Of a stretch of DNA of 34,118 bases, positions 1-9,654 are shown piece by piece (within the stretch, counting starts at the first letter, position 1; every line of letters starts with the position of its first letter). The notes under the pieces are model-generated. The model was not told where the DNA came from. It did no database searches and worked only from the letters and a program-made list of their open reading frames with translations. Both the position numbers and the translations under genes were made by a program. Source of the DNA: Chloroflexota bacterium (GTDB taxonomy: Bacteria > Chloroflexota > Dormibacteria > Aeolococcales > Aeolococcaceae); assembly GCA_028287625.1 (NCBI GenBank), contig JAQBPH010000335.1:1-34118 (forward strand), given 5' to 3'.

Positions 1-158
1 TCATCGAGACCGGCAACCTGCGAGCCTTCCTCCAGGAGAGCCTCTACGTGGCCATGTTCTTCTCCGGCTTCACCAGCATGTTCGCGTACTGGCTGGGGAT
101 CGGCATCGGCAAGTGGCTCGCGGTCTACCCGGCGACCAAGTTCCTGCAGCAGGCGTAG
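1..158 (+). CDS. pmoA: CuMMO (methane/ammonia/hydrocarbon monooxygenase) subunit A, 3' end only
   Basis: Not in the ORF track. Frame 3 reads IETGNLRAFLQESLYVAMFFSGFTSMFAYWLGIGIGKWLAVYPATKFLQQA*, with TAG at 156-158. This matches the PmoA/AmoA C-terminus (E-x-G-x-L-R-x-F followed by the last TM helix) and sits 11 nt before subunit B. Confidence 0.9.
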   Translation, partial: IETGNLRAFLQESLYVAMFFSGFTSMFAYWLGIGIGKWLAVYPATKFLQQA

Positions 159-169
159 CGGGTCAGATC

Positions 170-1447
170 ATGAGAAAGCACAAGCACATCAAGCGCATGG
201 CCTGCCTCCTCGTGGGGATGGTGGGTGCCCTCATGCTCGGTGGTCTGCGGGCGACGCCGGCCCTGGCGCACGGCGAGGCCGCACAGCCCGCGTTCCTGAA
301 GGAGGGGACGATCGCGTTCTGGGACGTCAAGTTCTCCTCCAACACGATAAAGATGGGCCAGGATCTCACCATCACCGGGAAGGTCCGCTTCCTCGAGGGG
401 TGGCCGAACAACCTCGCCGATCCCAGCCTGGTGTGGCTGAGCGCGGTCGCCCAGGGGCCGAGGGTCCTGGTGATGGAGCGCTACATCAACGATCAGTTCA
501 CACCGTCCTCGTGGGTCGTCGAGAAGGGCAACAACTACACCTTCAAGGAGGTGCTGCGGGGCAGGTCCCCGGGCACCTACCACGTCCATCCGATGATGGC
601 CACCAAGGGCGCCGGCCCGATCATCGGACCGGGTCAGTACGTCACCGTCGTGGACACCGGGGCCGAGTTCGCCAACAACGTCAACCTGCTGAGCGGTGAG
701 ACGATCGATCTCGAGACCTACGGCCGCGGCACGGTGATCTCCTGGCACTTGATCGTCGTCCTGGTCGCGGTCCCCTGGCTGCTCTTCTGGCTGCTCCGAC
801 CGCTGGTGATCCGTGCCAAGTACGTGGGGACGGGCGCGGAGGCCGAGCGGCGGCTGGTGAGCAAGCGCGACCGCATGATCGGGTATGGAATCGGCGCCGT
901 GATGATCGTGGTGCTCCTCATCGGCAACCTCATCACCAGCAACAGCTACCCGGTGACCATTCCGCAGCAGACGATCCGCATCGCACCGCCCGCGCTGCCC
1001 CCGTCGCCCCAGCTCGCCTCGCTGGATCCCTACACGACGACCGTCACCTATGGACCGACCACCCAGACGGTGCTGGCAACGCTCAAGGTGACCAACACCG
1101 GTCACTCCCCGGTCATACTCGACCGCTTCGCCACCGCGAGCTACGAGTTCGCCAATCAGGCGACGCACCCCAACGCTCAGAACCCCTTCACGGTCGACAA
1201 TCCGAACCCCATCGCCCCCGGCGAGACGAGGAAGCTCCAGGTCACCATGGCCGACGCGGTCTGGCAGACGGACAACCTCATCCCGATCAACGAGGTGCAG
1301 CTGATCCTTCGCGGCGTGTTCCTCTTCCGCGACTCGACCGGGACCGAGGCGCCGGTGGAGATCAACGCTCCGATCAACGTCGACTACAAGGTGCTGCTCG
1401 AGCACGGCAACGCGCGGCTGCCTCAGCTGCACACGAACCAATTCTGA
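170..1447 (+). CDS. pmoB: CuMMO subunit B (PmoB/AmoB/HmoB)
   Basis: Signal peptide ending ALA, then mature N-terminus HGEAAQPAF. Also EGWP, YHVHPM (HxH), GPIIGPG, IDLETYG, two TM helices and a second cupredoxin-like domain (NPIAPGETR). ATG 170 is preferred over the ORF-track start at 113. Confidence 0.96.
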   Translation: MRKHKHIKRMACLLVGMVGALMLGGLRATPALAHGEAAQPAFLKEGTIAFWDVKFSSNTIKMGQDLTITGKVRFLEGWPNNLADPSLVWLSAVAQGPRVLVMERYINDQFTPSSWVVEKGNNYTFKEVLRGRSPGTYHVHPMMATKGAGPIIGPGQYVTVVDTGAEFANNVNLLSGETIDLETYGRGTVISWHLIVVLVAVPWLLFWLLRPLVIRAKYVGTGAEAERRLVSKRDRMIGYGIGAVMIVVLLIGNLITSNSYPVTIPQQTIRIAPPALPPSPQLASLDPYTTTVTYGPTTQTVLATLKVTNTGHSPVILDRFATASYEFANQATHPNAQNPFTVDNPNPIAPGETRKLQVTMADAVWQTDNLIPINEVQLILRGVFLFRDSTGTEAPVEINAPINVDYKVLLEHGNARLPQLHTNQF

Positions 1448-1453
1448 CGTGAC

Positions 1454-2188
1454 GTGGTGATGCTCAGACGACCGACGCGCGCCGCCCTCCTCCTCGCAGG
1501 CCTGCTGGCCGGCGTGGTCTCGATCGCGGGGGCACCTCAGGCCTCGGCCCACGGGGGGGGCATCGGTGATTCCCTTCTCGCCGGCTCGATGTGCGCGCAG
1601 AAGCTCGACGGCGCCGAGGTCGACCTGAACATCTTCCTCGCCGGCGGGGGGCAGCCGTCCTGTGACGGCATGCCCCCCGGTCCGGCCACGCTCACCTTCG
1701 ACCTCGTCGACCCGTGGCTCCGGCAGGTCCCGGTGGGCGTGGAGGTCATTCAGACGGACGCCGGCTCGCGTGGCGTCGCCTCCCTGCCGGCGAAGGTGTA
1801 TCCCGGGGGGGTCGTCTCCCTCCGCGTCAGGCTGGACAGGCCGGGGACGTACACCGCCGCGGTGGTCTCCGGTGGATCGCGGGCCACATTCCCCATCGGC
1901 GTCGGTGGACTCGTCAGCGTGGCCTCGGCGGAGCGCTTCCTCAGCACTCCCATCGGGTGGCTGTCGGAGGCTCTGCTGGCGCTCGTCGTCGCTGGCCTGG
2001 GTTGGCTCGGCTTCCGGCGCCTCCGCGCGTCGAGGAGAACGGAGCGGGCGAGGAGGGGTGCTGCGACGATCCTGGCGGATCGGAGTGGCGCGGTCGCGCG
2101 ACCGCACCAGCTCCCCTCCGACGAGGCATCGGGGCCGACGGTGAATGGAAACGGGGCCCAGAGGAAGAAGACGCTGATCGGGCCCTGA
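1454..2188 (+). CDS. pmoD: PmoD/AmoD-like copper-associated membrane-anchored protein
   Basis: Signal peptide ending ASA, then HGG. Two Cys (SMC...SCDGMP), LTFDLVDPWLRQVPVGVEVI, LPAKVYPGG, PGTY and a C-terminal TM helix match the PmoD pattern. Lies 6 nt after pmoB. Confidence 0.75.
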   Translation: MVMLRRPTRAALLLAGLLAGVVSIAGAPQASAHGGGIGDSLLAGSMCAQKLDGAEVDLNIFLAGGGQPSCDGMPPGPATLTFDLVDPWLRQVPVGVEVIQTDAGSRGVASLPAKVYPGGVVSLRVRLDRPGTYTAAVVSGGSRATFPIGVGGLVSVASAERFLSTPIGWLSEALLALVVAGLGWLGFRRLRASRRTERARRGAATILADRSGAVARPHQLPSDEASGPTVNGNGAQRKKTLIGP

Positions 2189-2238
2189 CCGGGGCTCGCA
2201 GCGAACCGTGTCGTGGCAACAGTAAGCAGGGGAGGTTG

Positions 2239-2550
2239 ATGGTGCTGGCGGAATTCGACGTCAACACTGTGTTGTGGGTGTGGATCGTCTGCACCTTTGC
2301 AACGGCCCTGGGCATCGTCGGTGTGGTGCTGCTCCTCTTCGGGATCACCAGGAGCGCGCTGATCATCGACGAGCACAGTGATTCCATCATCCTCGCCGCG
2401 CTCCGAATCCGTGAGAACACCGGTGCACTCAGCGGACTGCAGACCACGATGGCTGCGGGCCAGGATGTGATGCGCACCGTGAAGGCGGTGGAGGCCGACG
2501 GTGCTGAGATCCTGGGAATGGCGGCAGCCGGACCCGGTGGGGGGCTTTGA
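2239..2550 (+). CDS. Small single-TM coiled-coil protein (array gene 1)
   Basis: GGAGG at 2231-2235. N-terminal TM (VLWVWIVCTFATALGIVGVVLLLFGI), then an amphipathic helix containing IRENTGAL. C-terminal part of ORF 1714..2550. Confidence 0.8.
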   Translation: MVLAEFDVNTVLWVWIVCTFATALGIVGVVLLLFGITRSALIIDEHSDSIILAALRIRENTGALSGLQTTMAAGQDVMRTVKAVEADGAEILGMAAAGPGGGL

Positions 2551-2553
2551 CGA

Positions 2554-2910
2554 ATGCTGGCGATGGCGGATATCGAGGTCTACAGCCTGTGGTGGATCAC
2601 CATCGGCGTTGTCGCCGTGGTGGTCATCGTCGCTGCCGGGCTGCTCCACAACATTCTGCTCGTGACCAGGGACATCGGCCAGAACGTCGCGAGCATCCTG
2701 GGGGTCGGGGCGGACATCCTCGACAACGCGGGCAACCTGCGTGCGCTACCGCGTGTCTACGGGACGGTGGTGACCACCCAGGTCGCCGCGTCGCACGTGA
2801 GCGACGTCACCGAGGCCATCGCACGCCACGCGGAAGCATGCCGGCGCTGCCCGGCCTGCGTCAGTCCCAGGCCGGCCAGCCAGTGGGCCGGGCTCGCCTG
2901 GGACCGGTAG
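2554..2910 (+). CDS. Small single-TM coiled-coil protein with C-terminal CxxCxxC (array gene 2)
   Basis: TM LWWITIGVVAVVVIVAAGLL, heptad helix, HAEACRRCPAC. Starts 3 nt after the previous stop. Confidence 0.8.
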   Translation: MLAMADIEVYSLWWITIGVVAVVVIVAAGLLHNILLVTRDIGQNVASILGVGADILDNAGNLRALPRVYGTVVTTQVAASHVSDVTEAIARHAEACRRCPACVSPRPASQWAGLAWDR

Positions 2911-2959
2911 ACGGCAACGGGTTCGATCTTCTTCGAGTACAACGCCGATCACGGAGGGT

Positions 2960-3244
2960 GTGGACGTGGTGCCAGGACTGCTGCTTGTGTTGACCATGCT
3001 CGCGGCGACCGCGCTGGTGGTGGCCGTGGCTGGATACGTGGTCGCCATCACTCGGGTGCTCGACCGGGTCGGGGCCCGGTCCGGCTCCGACCTCGAAAGG
3101 GTCGCGGGCGCGCTCCGTGGCATCGCCAACGAGACCACCATGCTCACCGCCGTCGCCGACGTCAACAGCGAGCTCCGCTCCCTGGGGGCAACGCTCCAGA
3201 CCATCGACGGCAACCTCGTCGCGTTCGTCCAGGCACAGGGGTAG
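2960..3244 (+). CDS. Small single-TM coiled-coil protein (array gene 3)
   Basis: GGAGGG at 2953-2958. TM plus heptad helix (VADVNSELRSLGATLQTIDGNL). Start may be GTG 2966. Confidence 0.8.
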   Translation: MDVVPGLLLVLTMLAATALVVAVAGYVVAITRVLDRVGARSGSDLERVAGALRGIANETTMLTAVADVNSELRSLGATLQTIDGNLVAFVQAQG

Positions 3245-3251
3245 AAACCGA

Positions 3252-3578
3252 ATGAGAATGCTTGCCTTCATCCCAGGTGACGGCTTTCTTGCGGTCTGGG
3301 CGCTGTTCCTGCTCGCGGTCGCGGTGGCGGTGCTCCCGGTGGTGGCGCTGCTCCTGATCAGGCTCATCGTGGTCACCGTGAAGCTCAGCCGCAACGCGCG
3401 GCTGGCGGCGGAGGCCGCCGAGGACATCCGCGCCAACGTCGCGGCGGCCCCTCACCTCGCCCACACGCTGCAGATCGCCGGCGACCTTCTCGCCGTGGTT
3501 CGGATCCTCGAGGGGCACGGTGTCGTGCTCGAGCGGGTGTTGACCCGCCATCTTCCTCCCCGGTTGGTGCGCCGCTGA
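3252..3578 (+). CDS. Small single-TM coiled-coil protein (array gene 4)
   Basis: ATG 3252, 7 nt after the previous stop. TM FLAVWALFLLAVAVAVLPVVALLLI, helix containing DIRANV. Confidence 0.78.
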   Translation: MRMLAFIPGDGFLAVWALFLLAVAVAVLPVVALLLIRLIVVTVKLSRNARLAAEAAEDIRANVAAAPHLAHTLQIAGDLLAVVRILEGHGVVLERVLTRHLPPRLVRR

Positions 3579-3883
3579 TGCTTGCCTCGCTCAATGCCAC
3601 CACCCTCGGCTACTTCTCCGGCGTCCTCGGCGCGATCGTCGCCGTGGCCCTGCTCGCCTCGCTGGGGATCGTCTACGCGGTCCTCGTCAAGGTGGGGCGG
3701 AGCCTGGCGACCATCTCAGAGACGCTGGGCGATGTCGCCGCCAACACCGATCCCGTGCCCCCCACCCTGGCCGCGGTCAATGAGGGGCTGACCACGGTCG
3801 GCACGGAGTTGCGGGCCGTCGAGAATCACCTGGCGACGGGCAAGGCTGTCTTCGCCGGGTACGCCAACGGAAGCATGGGCTGA
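3578..3883 (+). CDS. Small single-TM coiled-coil protein (array gene 5)
   Basis: TGATG overlap with the previous gene. TM plus helix (VAANTDPVPPTLAAVNEGL). Confidence 0.8.
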   Translation: MLASLNATTLGYFSGVLGAIVAVALLASLGIVYAVLVKVGRSLATISETLGDVAANTDPVPPTLAAVNEGLTTVGTELRAVENHLATGKAVFAGYANGSMG

Positions 3884-3940
3884 CACGCCCGAGCAGCCCC
3901 TCGCACCAGCAGCTCACTCAGGCTCACCAGAGGAGATCCG

Positions 3941-4555
3941 ATGCAGTACCGGCCCTACTCACTGGCACCACGCACCTATGCGCAGTGGCTGTTCGGCTTG
4001 CTGGGGGTGATCGTCGCCATCCTGCTGGTGGTCTTCCTCCTCGCGCGTGTCGTGGTCACCGCCAACAGCATCAACGACAAGGCCGCCGACATCCGGTCGC
4101 TCGGTGGCACCATCAACGAGAGCACCGCCGCAGTGCTGCAGCTGACCAAGACCAACCAGGTGGCCAGCACCATCCTGGGTGATGTCCATCCGCTCAGCGG
4201 GCAGCTCAACACGACCCTCGGTACCGCCTCGGGCATCTCCGGGCTGGCCACCTCGATCAACAACACCGCGGGCTCGATCGATACCGTTGCCGGTCAGATC
4301 AAGGGCTCCGCCGACCTGATCCTCAAGGACACCAACTCGATCGTCGCCTCGGCCGCCTCGATCGACAAGGGGGTGACCGACATCGACGCCAAGCTCAGCA
4401 GCGTGCTCGGCGCCGTCCAGGCGATCAAGGGCGACAGCGGCAACATCCGTGGCACCGCGGTCAGCATCCAGTCCAACGCCAAGGCGATCGACTGCAAGCT
4501 TCCCCCCGCCCTCCTGAACCCGGGCAACACCGTCAACAACTGCGGCGAGGGCTGA
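3941..4555 (+). CDS. Single-TM long heptad-repeat protein with C-terminal Cys pair (array gene 6)
   Basis: AGGAG RBS. TM, then regular 7-residue repeats (ATSINNT-AGSIDTV-AGQIKGS-ADLILKD-TNSIVAS-AASIDKG...), ending IDCKL...NNCGEG. Confidence 0.85.
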   Translation: MQYRPYSLAPRTYAQWLFGLLGVIVAILLVVFLLARVVVTANSINDKAADIRSLGGTINESTAAVLQLTKTNQVASTILGDVHPLSGQLNTTLGTASGISGLATSINNTAGSIDTVAGQIKGSADLILKDTNSIVASAASIDKGVTDIDAKLSSVLGAVQAIKGDSGNIRGTAVSIQSNAKAIDCKLPPALLNPGNTVNNCGEG

Positions 4556-4558
4556 GCG

Positions 4559-5140
4559 GTGACTCGTGCAGGCCTCACCACCCTCTCCTTCGCGGCGTTC
4601 GGCCTGCTGGTCGGCTCGGTGCTCATCGCCCTGGGCCTGACCGGGAACGCGCTGGTCTCGACCAACGGCCGGCTCGGCGACATCGACAAGGCGCTGACCT
4701 CGATCAAGGGCCATGCCGACCCTCTCACGTACCAGGTCGGCAAGGTCAACGACTCGCTGGTGTCCATCGAGCAGGCGCTCCAGCCGCTGCACGCCCAGGC
4801 GGACCAGCTCAACGGCATTCTCGGAGGCGTGCAGCAGACCCTGACCTCGGCCGACGGCAGCCTGAAGAGCATCAACGGCCATGTCACGGCCGCCGAGGCA
4901 GACCTCGTCCCTGCTGAGAGCGACCTTGCGGGGACGGACAGGTACTTCAAGCACATCAACCCCAACGTGGGCGACATCCAGGGGAAGGCCGTCCAGGCGG
5001 TCACCCTCCTGAGATCGATCGAGAATGACCTGGCCACCATCGAGGGCAAGCTCGTCCAGACCCGGGACCATCTGGTGAGCTCCTGCTCCAAGCTGCCCGG
5101 CGGGCTCCCCGGCGCCCAGGGCGGGGCTGCGTGCGGCTGA
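4559..5140 (+). CDS. Single-TM long heptad-repeat protein with C-terminal Cys pair (array gene 7)
   Basis: GTG 3 nt after the previous stop. TM plus heptads, ending SSCSKL...AACG. Confidence 0.83.
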   Translation: MTRAGLTTLSFAAFGLLVGSVLIALGLTGNALVSTNGRLGDIDKALTSIKGHADPLTYQVGKVNDSLVSIEQALQPLHAQADQLNGILGGVQQTLTSADGSLKSINGHVTAAEADLVPAESDLAGTDRYFKHINPNVGDIQGKAVQAVTLLRSIENDLATIEGKLVQTRDHLVSSCSKLPGGLPGAQGGAACG

Positions 5141-5748
5141 TGGCGACCTATACCACCTCCGACCCCATCGACCGCAGGGCGCGGTCGCTCGTCCTCAGCC
5201 TCTGGGTGATGCCGATCGTGGCAGGGGTGGCGGTGCTCGCCGTCGCCGCCGGCATGCTCATCGAGACGCTGGTGCTGGCCAACAGCATCGACGCCAAGGT
5301 CACACCCATCAGGTCGTCCCTGGCGGACATCAAGCTCCACACCGACACCATCGCCGTGCTCAACACCGTGGACGCGTCCGCCAAGGGGATCAAGAGCGCG
5401 GCGCACCCGCTGACCGACCAGGCCGCCAGCATTCTCGGCGTCGTGAGCACCATCCAGTCGACGGTGGGCTCGATCGACGGCTCGGCTGGCAGCATCGACT
5501 CCCACGTTGCGGCCGTCGACGGGACCGTTGGTTCGATCACCTCGGGCTTCACCGTCATCCGTGGCCAGGCGATCAGCATCGACCACGGGCTGGGATCCGC
5601 CGTCTCGCTCGCCGACCAGGTGCTGGGGGTCCTCGGGACGGTGAAGGGTGACACCGGCAGGCTGCTGATGACGCCGCTGCTGCCGACCATCAACGACCAC
5701 GCGAACAGCATCGACTGCAAGCTGGGTTCGGGAGGTGCCTGCCAGTGA
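5140..5748 (+). CDS. Single-TM long heptad-repeat protein with C-terminal Cys pair (array gene 8)
   Basis: TGATG coupling at 5138-5142. Visibly paralogous to 3941..4555 (ANSI, HPL, KGD, IDCKL). Ends GGACQ. Confidence 0.85.
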   Translation: MATYTTSDPIDRRARSLVLSLWVMPIVAGVAVLAVAAGMLIETLVLANSIDAKVTPIRSSLADIKLHTDTIAVLNTVDASAKGIKSAAHPLTDQAASILGVVSTIQSTVGSIDGSAGSIDSHVAAVDGTVGSITSGFTVIRGQAISIDHGLGSAVSLADQVLGVLGTVKGDTGRLLMTPLLPTINDHANSIDCKLGSGGACQ

Positions 5749-6344
5749 ACCCCGGTGAGCGCAAACTGGTGCACGGGCTGGCGATCTTCGAGGGGATCGC
5801 CCTGCTGGGGGCCCTCGTCCTCTTCCTGATCATCATCGGCAACACCCTGGTTCGCATCAACGAGAACCTGGGGGGTACTCGCGACTCCGCGTCGGCGGTC
5901 AACGCCAGCGCCCAGAACCTGCCCGATCTCGTCGACAGCATCACCGCCTCGCTGACGGCCATCGAGCATGACGTCCAGCCGGTCAAGGGCCAGCTCGACC
6001 AGATCAACGGCGGGCTGACGGCCACCTCCGGCGGCCTGGCGACCGCGGATGGCCACCTCAGCAAGATCCAGGGCAACCTGGTCCACATCGAGAGCAACCT
6101 CGTCGTCGCCGGCAAGGATGACGGCCTCAGCATCGTCGCGTCACTGATCAGCATCAACAACGAGGCGGCCGCGGTGGTCTCCCGGGCGGTCGCCCTGATC
6201 AGCTCGGGGGGTGCCATCCAGGGCGACACCTCCAACATCGCAAAGATCGCGGTGCCCATCAACCAGCATCTGGTGAGCATCTCGGGGAAGGCGGGCACCG
6301 TCTGCGTCCTCGGCAAGCTCACCAACCCCACGGCGCCGTGCTAG
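5745..6344 (+). CDS. Single-TM long heptad-repeat protein with C-terminal Cys pair (array gene 9)
   Basis: GTGA overlap. Paralogous to 4559..5140 (GNxLV, SLxxIE, QP, DQxNG, ADGxL). Ends TVCVL...TAPC. Confidence 0.83.
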   Translation: MNPGERKLVHGLAIFEGIALLGALVLFLIIIGNTLVRINENLGGTRDSASAVNASAQNLPDLVDSITASLTAIEHDVQPVKGQLDQINGGLTATSGGLATADGHLSKIQGNLVHIESNLVVAGKDDGLSIVASLISINNEAAAVVSRAVALISSGGAIQGDTSNIAKIAVPINQHLVSISGKAGTVCVLGKLTNPTAPC

Positions 6345-6381
6345 CCCGGATCGGCTTCGACTGACATCAGGACCAACGAAG

Positions 6382-7056
6382 ATGCCTGCCACCGCCGTCC
6401 GTCACGATCATCCATCCCTGAGGCGGACGGCGGCGGTGGCATCGGCGTTGATCCTCGGCGGGGTGCTCGGTGGCTGCGGCAGCGCCGCCAGTGCTCAGCC
6501 CAAGGCCTCCCCATCACCGCGCGCTGCTGCCGCGCAGTGGCTCCGGCACATCGACGAGCGGGCGGGCTTCTCACTCGACTACCCAGCCTCCTGGAACGTG
6601 TACGGGAGCCGTGATCCCGGCGTGCAGTTCCTGGTGGGGCCCGACGACGCCGACTTCGTCCTGGTGCGGGTGATCGCGCCGCTGCCGGTGTGTATCGGGC
6701 CAGGCCAGACGCAGGCGATGAAGCAGATCACCGATGGCCTGCTCCTCGATCAGAAGGTCGAGATCCTGCGGGAGGCGCAGGTGAGCCTGGCCGGCCTTCC
6801 CGGATGGGAGTACGTCTACAGCTTCGCCGACTCCGCGACCCGGGGGACCGGCGTGCACATCCACGTCTTTCTCTTCCAGGGCAACCGGCTTCAGACCCTG
6901 GTCCTCCAGGCGCTGCCGCAGACGCGGCTCCACGACCTGGCCCCCGCCTTCGACCAGGTCCTCGCGCGTTTTCGGACCATGCCGGTCGTTCAGACGGTGC
7001 CGCAGAGCACACCCTGTCCGGGCGTGCCGCAGGCGCCCGGCCCGACCGGCCGGTGA
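6382..7056 (+). CDS. Lipoprotein, PsbP/DcrB-like fold
   Basis: Lipobox-like LGGC, Ala/Pro linker, then GFSLDYPASW and SLAGLPG, typical of PsbP-like proteins. Confidence 0.65.
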   Translation: MPATAVRHDHPSLRRTAAVASALILGGVLGGCGSAASAQPKASPSPRAAAAQWLRHIDERAGFSLDYPASWNVYGSRDPGVQFLVGPDDADFVLVRVIAPLPVCIGPGQTQAMKQITDGLLLDQKVEILREAQVSLAGLPGWEYVYSFADSATRGTGVHIHVFLFQGNRLQTLVLQALPQTRLHDLAPAFDQVLARFRTMPVVQTVPQSTPCPGVPQAPGPTGR

Positions 7057-7706
7057 TCCCGCTCGGCGACCCGGCTGCGATGGACGCCGACGAGGCCCCC
7101 AGCCGTCTGTCCGGTGATGCGCGCACTCAGGTCGGGGCCGCGCACCGCCACGCCATCCTGTACGACAGGGAGCGCTGGCGCCGGGTCCGGCTCCCGCTGC
7201 TGACCCTGGCGACCATCTCTCTCGTGGTCGCCTTCCTCGCCCCACTCGTCAGCCGGCGTGGGGGCGCGGGCCTCGTGTTGAGCCTGCCCGGCGCCCTGTT
7301 GTACGGCATCGCCTTCGACCTCTGGCTGCGCCAGCGGTCCGGATACCTGGCGGTCGAGGGCGGGGACCTCGTGGTGCATCGCATGCGATCGAAGCGATCC
7401 ATCCCTCTGTCCGAGGTGCACCGCGCGAAGGTTGCGCGCGTGGGGGCCACCGTCAACAACAGGGAGCGGCGCGCCACCCTCCCCCGACCGCGGTCCCGGT
7501 GGCTCGAGACCGACGCCCTGACGGTGCGGCTCGACACCGACTCCGAGGCTCTGGAACGGCTGGCTCAGGTGCTGGGCCAGCAGTTCCTCTTCGGGCGGGT
7601 TCTGGTCGTGCCCGTCCTCGACCCGGAGGGCCTGCTCCGGGAGATGGAGGAGAACACACCCCAGGTCGCGCCACCGGCGCCGCCCCGTCGACGGCGCCGT
7701 CCGTGA
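7053..7706 (+). CDS. Hypothetical membrane protein (2 TM plus soluble, possibly PH-like domain)
   Basis: GTGA overlap with the previous stop (alternative ATG 7080). Two hydrophobic segments, then YLAVEGGDLVV...SIPLSEV. Confidence 0.6.
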   Translation: MIPLGDPAAMDADEAPSRLSGDARTQVGAAHRHAILYDRERWRRVRLPLLTLATISLVVAFLAPLVSRRGGAGLVLSLPGALLYGIAFDLWLRQRSGYLAVEGGDLVVHRMRSKRSIPLSEVHRAKVARVGATVNNRERRATLPRPRSRWLETDALTVRLDTDSEALERLAQVLGQQFLFGRVLVVPVLDPEGLLREMEENTPQVAPPAPPRRRRRP

Positions 7707-7805
7707 GCCAGCGCAGCCGCGCCATGGTCCTCGGGTCCGAGGTCTCGCCGGGTGAACGATCATGAACTGCGTTCCCACGCAGTCGCTTCTTGGAGGGACG
7801 GAGCA

Positions 7806-9194
7806 ATGGCGGTGCCAGTGAAGCAGGATCCCACCTTCTACCGCTCACCCACGGAGGCGATGGAGGCACCCACCGAGACCCTGGCCTACCTCGTGACGTT
7901 CGACCGGCAGGCCAGGCGTCCCGACCGCCTGGAGGTGCTCGACACCGACCCCACCTCCTCGACCTATGGGAAGGTGGTGGGCGGGCTGGACATGCCCAAC
8001 GTCGGCGACGAGCTCCACCACTTCGGTTGGAATGCGTGCAGCGCGGCGCTGTGTCCAGACCATGGACCGATGGGCGGGTTGGAGCGCCGCTACCTGATCA
8101 TCCCCGGGTTGCGCTCCTCCCGCATCCACATCGTCGACACCAAGCCCGACCCTCGGAACCCGAGGCTGGTCAAGGTCATCGAGCCCGAGGAGCTGGCTCG
8201 TCGCGCCGGCTACAGCCGTCCCCACACAAGTCACTGTGGAGACGATGGCATCTACATGAGTGCGCTCGGCAACGTGGCCGGCGACAGCCCGGGCGGCATC
8301 TTCGTCATCGACGCCGAGACCTTCCAGGTGCTCGGCCCCTGGGAGGTCGATCGTGGACCGCAGCGCCTCGCGTACGACTTCTGGTGGCACCTCGGGCACG
8401 ACACCATGATCACCAGCGAGTGGGGCACGCCGAACATGATCGAGGGCGGCCTCGACCCCGAGCTGCTGCTCGCCTCGAAATACGGCCACCAGCTCCACGT
8501 CTGGGACCTGGCGCGGCGCCGGCACCGTCAGGTGGTCGACATCGGCGCCGAGTACCAGATGGCCCTCGAGCTGCGTCCGGCGCACGATCCCACCAGGGCG
8601 TACGGCTTCATGGGCGTGGTCGTGTGCCTCAAGGACCTCTCGGCCTCCGTCTGGCTCTGGGACCTGGCCGAGGGTGGCTGCACCGTCCAGAAGGTCATCG
8701 ACATCCCCGCGGAGCCAGCCGATCCGGATCTGCTGCCTCCGCTCCTCAGGGACTTCAAGGCGGTGCCACCGCTGGTCACCGACATCAACCTCTCGGTCGA
8801 CGATCGGTTCCTCTACGTATCCTGCTGGGGAACCGGCGAGCTGCGCCAGTACGACGTGTCCGATCCGCGACACCCGCGGCTGACCGGGTCGGTGCGCCTC
8901 GGGGGGATTGTCCGGCACGCCGCCCACCCCGCCTCGGGACCGCTGAACGGCGGCCCTCAGATGGTGGAGGTGAGCCGTGACGGTCGCCGCGTCTACCTCA
9001 GCAACTCGCTCTACGGCGCCTGGGACGAGCAGTTCTATCCCGAGGGCATCCGCAGCTGGGTGGCCAAGCTCGACGCCTCCCCCGAGGGCGGACTCGACCC
9101 CGACCCGGCCTTCTTCACAGAGTTCGAGCAACGCGCCCACCAGATCCATCTCGAGGGCGGCGACGCGTCGTCGGACTCGTACTGGTCCTCGTGA
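7806..9194 (+). CDS. SBP56 / selenium-binding protein family (methanethiol oxidase-like)
   Basis: DPTFYRSP, GDELHHFGWNACS, GYSRPHT, YDFWW, SEWG, GGPQMVEVSRDG, DEQFYP, GGDASSDS. GGAGG/GGAG upstream of ATG 7806. No signal peptide. Confidence 0.93.
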   Translation: MAVPVKQDPTFYRSPTEAMEAPTETLAYLVTFDRQARRPDRLEVLDTDPTSSTYGKVVGGLDMPNVGDELHHFGWNACSAALCPDHGPMGGLERRYLIIPGLRSSRIHIVDTKPDPRNPRLVKVIEPEELARRAGYSRPHTSHCGDDGIYMSALGNVAGDSPGGIFVIDAETFQVLGPWEVDRGPQRLAYDFWWHLGHDTMITSEWGTPNMIEGGLDPELLLASKYGHQLHVWDLARRRHRQVVDIGAEYQMALELRPAHDPTRAYGFMGVVVCLKDLSASVWLWDLAEGGCTVQKVIDIPAEPADPDLLPPLLRDFKAVPPLVTDINLSVDDRFLYVSCWGTGELRQYDVSDPRHPRLTGSVRLGGIVRHAAHPASGPLNGGPQMVEVSRDGRRVYLSNSLYGAWDEQFYPEGIRSWVAKLDASPEGGLDPDPAFFTEFEQRAHQIHLEGGDASSDSYWSS

Positions 9195-9330: not shown

Positions 9331-9654
9331 GTGCCTGGGGTCAAGATGATGGTGATGTACCCGCAGCCGACGGATGTCGACGCCTTCGAGAAGGTGTACC
9401 TGGACGAGCATGTGCCCCTGGCCGTCGAGAAGCTGGCCGGCAAGACGAAGATCGTCGCAACCAGGGTGACGGGCTCGCCGGACGGTGCGCCGGCCTTCTA
9501 CCGCATCGCCGAGGTGCACTTCCCGTCGATGGACGCGTTCAAGGCGTGCGCCGGCTCCCAGGAGGGGAAGCTGACGCTCGCCCACGCCTCGGCCATCTCG
9601 ACCGGGGGCCCGCCCGTCGTGCTCGTCGCCGAGGAGGAGACGTACACCTTCTGA
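9331..9654 (+). CDS. EthD family protein
   Basis: GAGGAGG RBS before GTG 9331. KMMVMYPQPTDVDAFEKVYLDEHVPL and AEVHFPSMDAF pattern. Confidence 0.85.
   Translation: MPGVKMMVMYPQPTDVDAFEKVYLDEHVPLAVEKLAGKTKIVATRVTGSPDGAPAFYRIAEVHFPSMDAFKACAGSQEGKLTLAHASAISTGGPPVVLVAEEETYTF

Follow-up and report, generated by a model that had tools for sequence, protein, structure and literature searches.

A ten-gene membrane protein module behind copper monooxygenase genes in Candidatus Dormibacteria, with short subunits homologous to the small one-helix proteins of [NiFe] hydrogenase loci

The stretch of DNA analysed here (hereafter the window) is a 34,118-nt contig from a metagenome-assembled genome (MAG) of Candidatus Dormibacteria (Dormibacterota), a class of Chloroflexota in GTDB. 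Directly behind genes for a copper membrane monooxygenase (CuMMO) it carries an array of nine small open reading frames (ORFs; 2239-6344), each encoding a protein with a single predicted transmembrane (TM) helix, followed by a tenth gene for a lipoprotein. Profile comparisons show that genes 1-5 are collinear homologues of small one-helix genes located at the small-subunit (S) and large-subunit (L) genes of [NiFe] hydrogenases, and the same comparisons identify genes 6-9 as longer paralogues that belong to the same two classes. The ten genes form a module that is conserved in Candidatus Dormibacteria and has no general linkage to CuMMO. With moderate confidence, the module is read here as descending from small membrane subunits of group-1l-type [NiFe] hydrogenases and as a portable hetero-oligomeric scaffold, of which one diverged copy was appended to a CuMMO operon.

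Profile-profile alignment (hhalign) separates the nine proteins into class A (genes 1, 2, 4, 6 and 8) and class B (genes 3, 5, 7 and 9), which follow each other along the array as A A B A B and then A B A B. Values for pairs of the same class were 99.3% for genes 7 and 9, 99.2% for genes 6 and 8, 96.3% for genes 1 and 4, 95.8% for genes 1 and 2 and 94.0% for genes 3 and 5, and those for cross pairs between the classes among the short genes mostly stayed below 5%, with the exception of genes 4 and 5 (35%). A family profile of gene 6 matched the first 80-90 residues of ORFs of about 100 aa in 13 of 401 Chloroflexota genomes. In the 11 distant loci that were fetched, these ORFs stand in runs of 3-5 small genes that match the hidden Markov models (HMMs) of genes 1-5. 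The run is located between the S and L genes of a [NiFe] hydrogenase in 8 of the 11 loci; one further locus is cut by the contig end and has the L gene after the run, in another the run is divergent and stands beside an adjacent S-L pair, and in the last (L075) it is directly upstream of S-L. Locus L070, for example, has the run between an S gene (PF14720, PF01058) and an L gene (PF00374), and genes for a NifU-Rieske protein and a maturation protease follow. Position-specific HMMs (TM1 to TM5) built from the seven five-gene hydrogenase loci match the window collinearly, gene 2 to TM2, gene 3 to TM3, gene 4 to TM4 and gene 5 to TM5 (E 1.5e-16 to 1.4e-11). Gene 1 matches the class A positions at about 1e-7 with no clear best position, genes 6 and 8 likewise match class A positions, and genes 7 and 9 match class B positions. 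The ten genes of the module are as follows, HylTM being the published hydrogenase-associated proteins discussed below:

2239-2550, + strand: gene 1, 103 aa, class A short subunit, HylTM-like (position HMMs TM2/TM4/TM1, E 4e-8 to 1e-7)
2554-2910, + strand: gene 2, 118 aa, class A, HylTM2-like (best match TM2, E 1.5e-16)
2960-3244, + strand: gene 3, 94 aa, class B, HylTM3-like (best match TM3, E 1.3e-15)
3252-3578, + strand: gene 4, 108 aa, class A, HylTM4-like (best match TM4, E 7.2e-14)
3578-3883, + strand: gene 5, 101 aa, class B, HylTM5-like (best match TM5, E 1.4e-11)
3941-4555, + strand: gene 6, 204 aa, long class A subunit (TM2 HMM, E 1.1e-12)
4559-5140, + strand: gene 7, 193 aa, long class B subunit (TM5 HMM, E 4.8e-11)
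5131-5748, + strand: gene 8, 205 aa, long class A subunit, N-terminal flank net positive
5745-6344, + strand: gene 9, 199 aa, long class B subunit (TM3 HMM, E 1.3e-10)
6382-7056, + strand: gene 10, lipoprotein with predicted PsbP/Mog1-like fold, 37 nt past gene 9

The first-pass annotation of this DNA had described nine co-oriented ORFs, five short and four long, with gaps of at most 57 nt and TGATG/GTGA coupling, and this description stands: the proteins measure 94-118 aa and 193-205 aa, all genes lie on the + strand, and the successive gaps are 3, 49, 7, -1, 57, 3, -10 and -4 nt, with a TGATG overlap of gene 4 stop and gene 5 start and a GTGA overlap between genes 8 and 9. Purine-rich stretches are found before three longer gaps. 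The GC content at third codon positions of the array genes is 0.79-0.94 in a region of 66-69% GC, orthologues of every array gene occur in ten other arrays, and the ratio of non-synonymous to synonymous substitution rates (dN/dS) of genes 6 and 7 is 0.30-0.40 against two metagenome copies that are 82-91% identical. The array ORFs are therefore genes and not chance ORFs.

The same annotation knew of no described accessory array of this kind, which is wrong for genes 1-5, as they correspond to the published HylTM1-5. According to the available text (Ortiz et al., bioRxiv 10.1101/2020.08.06.239558), HylTM1-5 are short proteins with predicted TM helices whose five genes separate those of HylS and HylL in group 1l [NiFe] hydrogenase clusters, and the accessible part of another paper presents AlphaFold models of them as tube-like membrane scaffolds that possibly permit electron transfer to quinone (PMC13554262). 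Genes 1-5 resemble HylTM1-5 in standing as a tandem of five and in the size (about 100 aa) and layout of their products, a single TM helix at the N-terminus with a helical tail behind it. Genes 2-5 match positions 2-5 of the run in the Chloroflexota hydrogenase loci, a cysteine motif is shared in the second protein, and the distribution of lysine and arginine (K+R) suits cytoplasmic tails as in the published model. The window array differs in that it does not lie between hydrogenase S and L genes and instead has pmoB and a PmoD-like gene upstream, in that it adds four paralogues of 193-205 aa and a lipoprotein, which go unmentioned for HylTM in the available text, and in that it occurs in a genus with 1h-like hydrogenases, with one copy behind pmoB. 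In the literature covered, from which the supplements of the Hyl papers were left out, nothing was found on HylTM-like genes beside CuMMO, on the long paralogues or on CuMMO in Dormibacterota; one publication assigns CuMMO to Binatia, judging from the part of it that was available.

The motif of gene 2, H-x3-C-x2-C-P-x-C at the C-terminus (window 2830-2870), is common to 5 of the 7 TM2 proteins from the hydrogenase loci (L068, L069, L071, L074 and L075) and is not mentioned in the available literature on HylTM. If located on the cytoplasmic side, it could serve as a metal or Fe-S site.

Hydrogenase genes also occur in the vicinity of some complete arrays. In L040 the order is hylS-hylL-Rieske-hupD-coxD-like-coxE-like, with S and L adjacent, and the array follows in the same orientation about 3 kb past the last of these genes. 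The large subunit of this locus is 57% identical to that of L070. Compared with the 1h structure 5AA5, it reaches 503 bits, and the tested large subunit of a congener of the window (G001) reaches 1094 bits. In L042 a HypC gene lies 2 kb upstream of the array. Among six distant contigs with long-type genes only, hupD was found beside them in L105 and L108 (tblastn). The G001 genome contains three 1h-like [NiFe] large subunit genes (contigs C7 and C1; L089-L091) that are 94-99.8% mutually identical and have S and L adjacent without small genes nearby. In other MAGs of the genus the contigs break at the 1h-like hydrogenase genes. No PF00374 match was found on the window contig (C201 of genome G000), while the genome has such matches on C482, C635, C361, C657, C667 and C668.

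Relatives of the long subunits are not restricted to these loci. When the gene 6 profile was run with HMMER over 1.84 billion representatives, 701 proteins matched at E<=1e-3, 350 at 1e-10 and 140 at 1e-30, and a word-index search found 26. The long subunits define an unnamed family with at least 140 representative clusters. In the ESM Atlas, the clusters nearest to genes 2 and 6 are named 'hypothetical protein' and come mostly from Actinomycetota and Chloroflexota, which is taken as a lead only.

Conservation of the module was followed through 11 arrays: that of the window, a second one in the same genome (C463), eight loci from other genomes and one on a 105-kb metagenome contig. Genes 1-9 and the lipoprotein gene have the identical order in all ten sources and in L099, i.e. 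in 11 of 11 arrays. The copy on C463 is complete, 50-67% identical per gene to that of the window, and adjoins a divergently transcribed M50-peptidase-like gene. In L099, lgt is located directly downstream of the array.

Gene 10 was absent from the first-pass annotation and follows gene 9 in all of the arrays. Read from the alignment, its lipobox-like motif is G-G-C-G-S in the window copy and L-A-G-C-G-G in most orthologues. The AlphaFold2 model exceeds a pLDDT of 85 at residues 50-200, and a Foldseek search with it matched 39 chains of the Protein Data Bank (PDB) at E<=0.001, with PsbP (2VU4, E 4e-8) and CyanoP (2XB3, TM-score 0.74 by target) at the top and LpqN and DcrB among the others. The modelled fold is that of the PsbP/Mog1 group (E 4e-8 to 1e-7, TM-score 0.66-0.74 by target), and a lipoprotein signal is present as well, although sequence identity is 12-17%, no Pfam family matches at E<=0.001, and neither a photosystem nor an MmpL context is present. 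Members of the PsbP/Mog1-fold family are located on the outer face of membrane complexes.

Linkage of the module to CuMMO is a different matter. The window lies in a 688-contig MAG (completeness 88.5%, contamination 3.9%), and three features of the pmo cluster precede the array:

3-125, + strand: C-terminal tail of pmoA (PF02461 positions 193-233, 23.1 bits), gene truncated by the contig start
170-1447, + strand: pmoB, CuMMO subunit B (PF04744, E 3.9e-94), start uncertain between ATG 170 and GTG 113
1454-2188, + strand: PmoD-like gene with signal peptide, beta domain of about 110 aa and C-terminal TM helix

The pmoA tail stays below the PF02461 cut-off of 27.5 bits because only 41 of its residues are on the contig. 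The assembly breaks at the window start, so that the contig has no pmoC and lacks the greater part of pmoA, and pmoC was not found in a search of the G000 genome. The 244-aa PmoD-like protein is encoded six bases past pmoB and has zero Pfam or NCBIfam matches. As a single sequence it reached only E 2.1 against PmoD of the PDB (6CPD), and a profile of four paralogues, three of them from elsewhere in the same genome, gave a weak match (E 0.023, 17.7 bits, positions 42-135 on 2-108 of 128 residues, 94 positions). The name PmoD-like may therefore be applied only weakly, with architecture and the place after pmoB in agreement. The array begins 50 nt past the stop of this gene, so that its reported place directly after pmoD is correct as to position, and the identity of the preceding gene is less firm than had been assumed. 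Similarly, the array had been placed inside the CuMMO operon; it does lie directly behind the pmo genes on the same strand, but at their 3' end and not among them.

Two of the other PmoD-like paralogues are on contigs C272 and C672. Contig C548 (1-859, L002) has the same starting point as the window and is 98% identical to it over the first 177 nt (pmoA tail and intergenic sequence), past which a PmoD-like paralogue (71% aa identity) takes the place that pmoB has in the window. It represents either a second pmoCA locus with a PmoD-like gene directly after it or a branch of the assembly graph.

Co-orientation, the short distance to the PmoD-like gene and the lack of any terminator-like site between 1 and 6344 would suit a dedicated accessory machine of CuMMO, proper to CuMMO operons as such, which might shape membranes, order CuMMO into arrays or conduct hydrophobic substrate. 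The joint occurrence of array and pmoB in six genomes of the window's genus (g1) agrees with this as well. The neighbourhoods of the other arrays do not. pmoB and a PmoD-like gene adjoin 1 of the 11 arrays, that of the window, and were found beside none of the nine others (of ten) with at least 1.8 kb of upstream sequence. In G001, G003 and G007 pmoB and the array are on separate contigs, and in the G001 operon (C8; L033 7907-10874) what comes after pmoC-pmoA-pmoB is a small one-TM gene and then a hydrolase-like ORF, not an array. Across 374 genomes of the class, the array was detected in nine (gene 6 profile, E<=1e-15), pmoB in ten and both in six, all of them in genus g1, where the array is found in 6 of 7 other genomes, pmoB in 6 of 7, and both in six genomes including that of the window. 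Three genomes have the array without pmoB (G004, G465 and G474) and four have pmoB without the array (G006, G621, G636 and G637); as these seven genomes are 67-89% complete, single absences are soft. A separate search of the L040 and L042 genomes (G474 and G465) also found no pmoB. Scoring the array HMM against CuMMO over the class thus shows a co-occurrence limited to a single genus, and the earlier proposal that the array serves the monooxygenase fails as a general statement. With hydrogenase genes as the ancestral context, a machine dedicated to CuMMO is very unlikely.

The window copy itself is nonetheless unusual. It is 59-60% identical to the genus copies, which share 82-99% identity among themselves, and 44-47% identical to three outlying arrays, and in the tree it branches on a long branch outside the genus clade, between the genus and the outlying groups. 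Window-type gene 6 was found at 91% identity on two short metagenome contigs, neither of which reaches the upstream gene; for this reason the CuMMO linkage has been seen only once. The divergence, together with metagenome copies at a dN/dS of 0.30-0.40, indicates that the window copy is old and kept under selection.

Genus-type arrays have a conserved element of about 70 nt (ACTAGAGGC...TATTGGCAC...TGATAACGTCC) 40-130 nt upstream of gene 1, which was found in the C463 array (L006, about 1380-1480) and in those of G001, G002 and G004 (L037, L038 and L041) and may act as a promoter or operator. The window copy lacks it, as do L040, L042 and L099. Given its absence, the window array is probably co-transcribed with the pmo genes. 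A promoter scan of positions 1-8000 returned 0 sigma-70-like sites and is uninformative for this phylum, and a comparison of the window with three soil metatranscriptome contig sets gave three pieces of 18-33 bases on two contigs with unlike flanks, uninformative on expression.

Perhaps this paralogue has become neofunctionalised and works with CuMMO and the PmoD-like protein, by tethering a partner or electron donor or by organising CuMMO, while the genus copy keeps the older role. Such a recruitment is compatible with descent from hydrogenase subunits and can be entertained as a possibility, short of being probable. It would account for a second, strongly diverged copy in the genome in which all ten genes are intact and under constraint, whose type recurs in metagenomes, and which has no genus-type upstream element and abuts the PmoD-like gene; the adjoining pmoB is also distinct, as its product shares only 31% identity with PmoB of three congeners, and the window type is the only pmoB that G000 showed. 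On the other hand, there is a single instance, an assembly artefact is possible, and CuMMO, as an integral membrane enzyme, needs no anchor.

What the proteins might do is suggested by their architecture. One N-terminal TM helix per protein, as previously described, was recovered throughout, with a best 19-residue Kyte-Doolittle mean of 1.9-3.3 (10 orthologues averaged per gene). In the short proteins this value is 2.5-3.3 and the hydrophobic span is over by residue 28-38. The heptad-patterned helix that had been ascribed to each protein was upheld for genes 6, 7 and 8, in which the strongest hydrophobic period is 3.5 residues, and is weak in gene 9. An 11-residue repeat in the long helices was considered and rejected, as the periodicity power lies at 3.5 and not at 3.67. 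The AlphaFold2 monomer of gene 6 (20-row alignment, mean pLDDT 74.4) places the TM helix at residues 10-54 and one uninterrupted helix at 60-186, giving a layout of TM helix, 127-residue heptad helix and a C-terminal C-x15-C; two conserved cysteines at the C-terminal end are a trait of all long subunits. Among metagenome contigs L104-L108, distant long-type relatives have near-identical heptad runs such as S-I-N-G-S-A-K and D-G-S-L-K-D-T, and the varying number of heptad repeats among these homologues suggests that the length of the stalk could be tunable.

The flanks of the TM helices differ between short and long subunits. In genes 1-5 the K+R count is about 0 on the N side versus 1.1-2.8 on the C side, which points to an N-out/C-in orientation that would suit a partner in the cytosol, like that of the Hyl model. 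In genes 6-9 the N side has 1.0-3.2 K+R and is net positive, the C side is net neutral to negative, and the tails consist of 9-18% E/K/R/Q and 30-39% S/T/N/G with two Cys, pointing to N-in/C-out and to long tails that would be extracytoplasmic. From these patterns we infer an oligomer of two-sided topology with a scaffold role. The ten products would come together as a hetero-oligomer whose single TM helices form a bundle, in which the helical tails of the short subunits would face the cytoplasm and dock a cytosolic enzyme on the membrane, as in the HylTM model. The long subunits would point outward as a heptad coiled-coil stalk of about 19 nm (127 residues at 0.15 nm each) with the paired cysteines as its closure, and the PsbP-fold lipoprotein would join them on the outer face. 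A hetero-oligomeric assembly, which had already been proposed, is plausible in view of the translationally coupled genes, the two alternating classes and the synteny in 11 arrays; it is the attached service to CuMMO in general that does not hold. A complex prediction for genes 6, 7, 8 and 9 with alignments and without controls scored 0.30, with the mark at 0.32, and speaks neither for nor against an assembly.

Alternatively, the helices could form a tube with a hydrophobic lining that moves quinone or another lipid between membrane and enzyme. The precedent is HucM of the Mycobacterium smegmatis hydrogenase Huc, in the available text a tetrameric coiled-coil tube with a hydrophobic lining and room for one menaquinone molecule (PMC10017518). 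Like the array proteins, HucM is a helical accessory protein, small and in its case of an atmospheric-H2 hydrogenase whose enzyme and membrane are joined by the coiled-coil tube, an analogy of function drawn from the literature alone. It differs in being one protein, homotetrameric and peripheral, whereas the array encodes nine different single-pass proteins whose long helices are probably outside the cell. The tube shape modelled for HylTM1-5 would fit a conduit, as would the four long paralogues with Ile/Ala repeated at a fixed heptad position and many invariant Ile/Leu columns. An Ala/Ile heptad core suits an ordinary packed coiled coil equally well, however, and to judge by their appearance the long tails lie outside the cytoplasm, in a place with no evident enzyme that uses quinone. 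Conduction of a hydrophobic molecule is accordingly regarded as unlikely.

Equally improbable is a module of the envelope or of stress response unrelated to redox enzymes, with anchored coiled coils like those of DUF948 or YtxH or with a stalk in the S-layer or cell wall, for which the hydrogenase neighbourhood would be historical only. Proteins of the Mce (TIGR00996) and DUF948 (PF06103) families do share an N-terminal TM anchor followed by long helices and, in the case of Mce, tandem multigene sets. Weak matches to DUF948 (E 0.0012-0.03) and coiled-coil matches to SlaB and Laminin_II were obtained, the S/T/N/G-rich long tails with paired cysteines are like those of surface proteins, the array of genus g1 stands alone beside an M50 peptidase gene, and the lgt gene of L099 could be added to these. 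Yet Pfam and NCBIfam scans of all nine proteins returned nothing above a cut-off, and the scores fall far short: the best DUF948 score is 19.5 bits (gene 5) versus a cut-off of 37.2, and gene 7 alone matches TIGR00996, with 18.4 bits versus 140.5 and in the helical part only, no MCE domain being found in the Pfam scan. The labels Mce, DUF948, DUF7310, SlaB and chemotaxis receptor (including two JGI names) were rejected as coiled-coil noise. All 11 distant loci have their short genes next to structural genes of a hydrogenase, and hydrogenase genes are also neighbours of the array (L040 and L042) and of long-type genes (L105 and L108).

Descent from hydrogenase subunits and a scaffold role remain the favoured reading, and several points weigh against it. 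The genus of the array has only 1h-like hydrogenases, so that the module persists without the enzyme it is thought to scaffold. The link to HylTM runs via Chloroflexota loci with small genes between S and L and not via the HylTM sequences of Hymenobacter roseosalivarius, and those loci are called group-1l-type by their gene arrangement. One locus (L075), which counts among both the 11 distant loci and the seven behind the position HMMs, belongs to a genome (G009) that is unpublished. The topology is derived solely from the positive-inside rule and from composition, and an opposite orientation of homologous N-terminal regions in short and long subunits would be unusual. The scaffold role and the assembly are predictions from sequence. 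Finally, the junction of the PmoD-like gene and gene 1 (2188-2239) lies in a fragmented MAG, which makes a chimeric join possible.

HylTM1-5 are known only as predicted ORFs and from an AlphaFold model, yet they accompany the hydrogenase reported as the prevailing atmospheric-H2 hydrogenase of Antarctic soils. Their homologues are seen here as an autonomous, expanded ten-gene module that was kept in a genus without a 1l-type hydrogenase and was duplicated onto a CuMMO operon. On account of this autonomy, persistence and duplication, HylTM-type proteins are not simply hydrogenase parts. A more far-reaching and rather doubtful proposal is that various enzymes for the oxidation of atmospheric trace gases have a portable two-sided scaffold of HylTM-type subunits in common, to which Dormibacteria would have added a PsbP-like lipoprotein and four coiled-coil subunits that reach outward by about 19 nm. 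The copy in the window would then be dedicated to CuMMO and couple it physically to a partner or to the cell envelope. The distribution of the module offers a natural experiment for finding its binding partner. For the electron supply and organisation of CuMMO in non-proteobacterial membranes, a candidate partner module is of interest.

Further genes of the window lie downstream. An ORF for a membrane protein (about 7150-7706) stands between the module and a gene of the selenium-binding-protein/methanethiol-oxidase family (7752-9194; SBP56, E 2e-186), which is just downstream of the module, and an EthD-domain gene follows at 9340-9654. Towards the end of the contig (26191-34116) are genes for a CoxE-like VWA protein, a CoxD-like AAA protein, an iron alcohol dehydrogenase, a radical SAM/SPASM protein, a CoxS-like [2Fe-2S] protein and a CoxL-like molybdopterin protein. 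As a coxD/coxE-like pair is also located between the hydrogenase genes and the array in L040, such pairs recur near the module.

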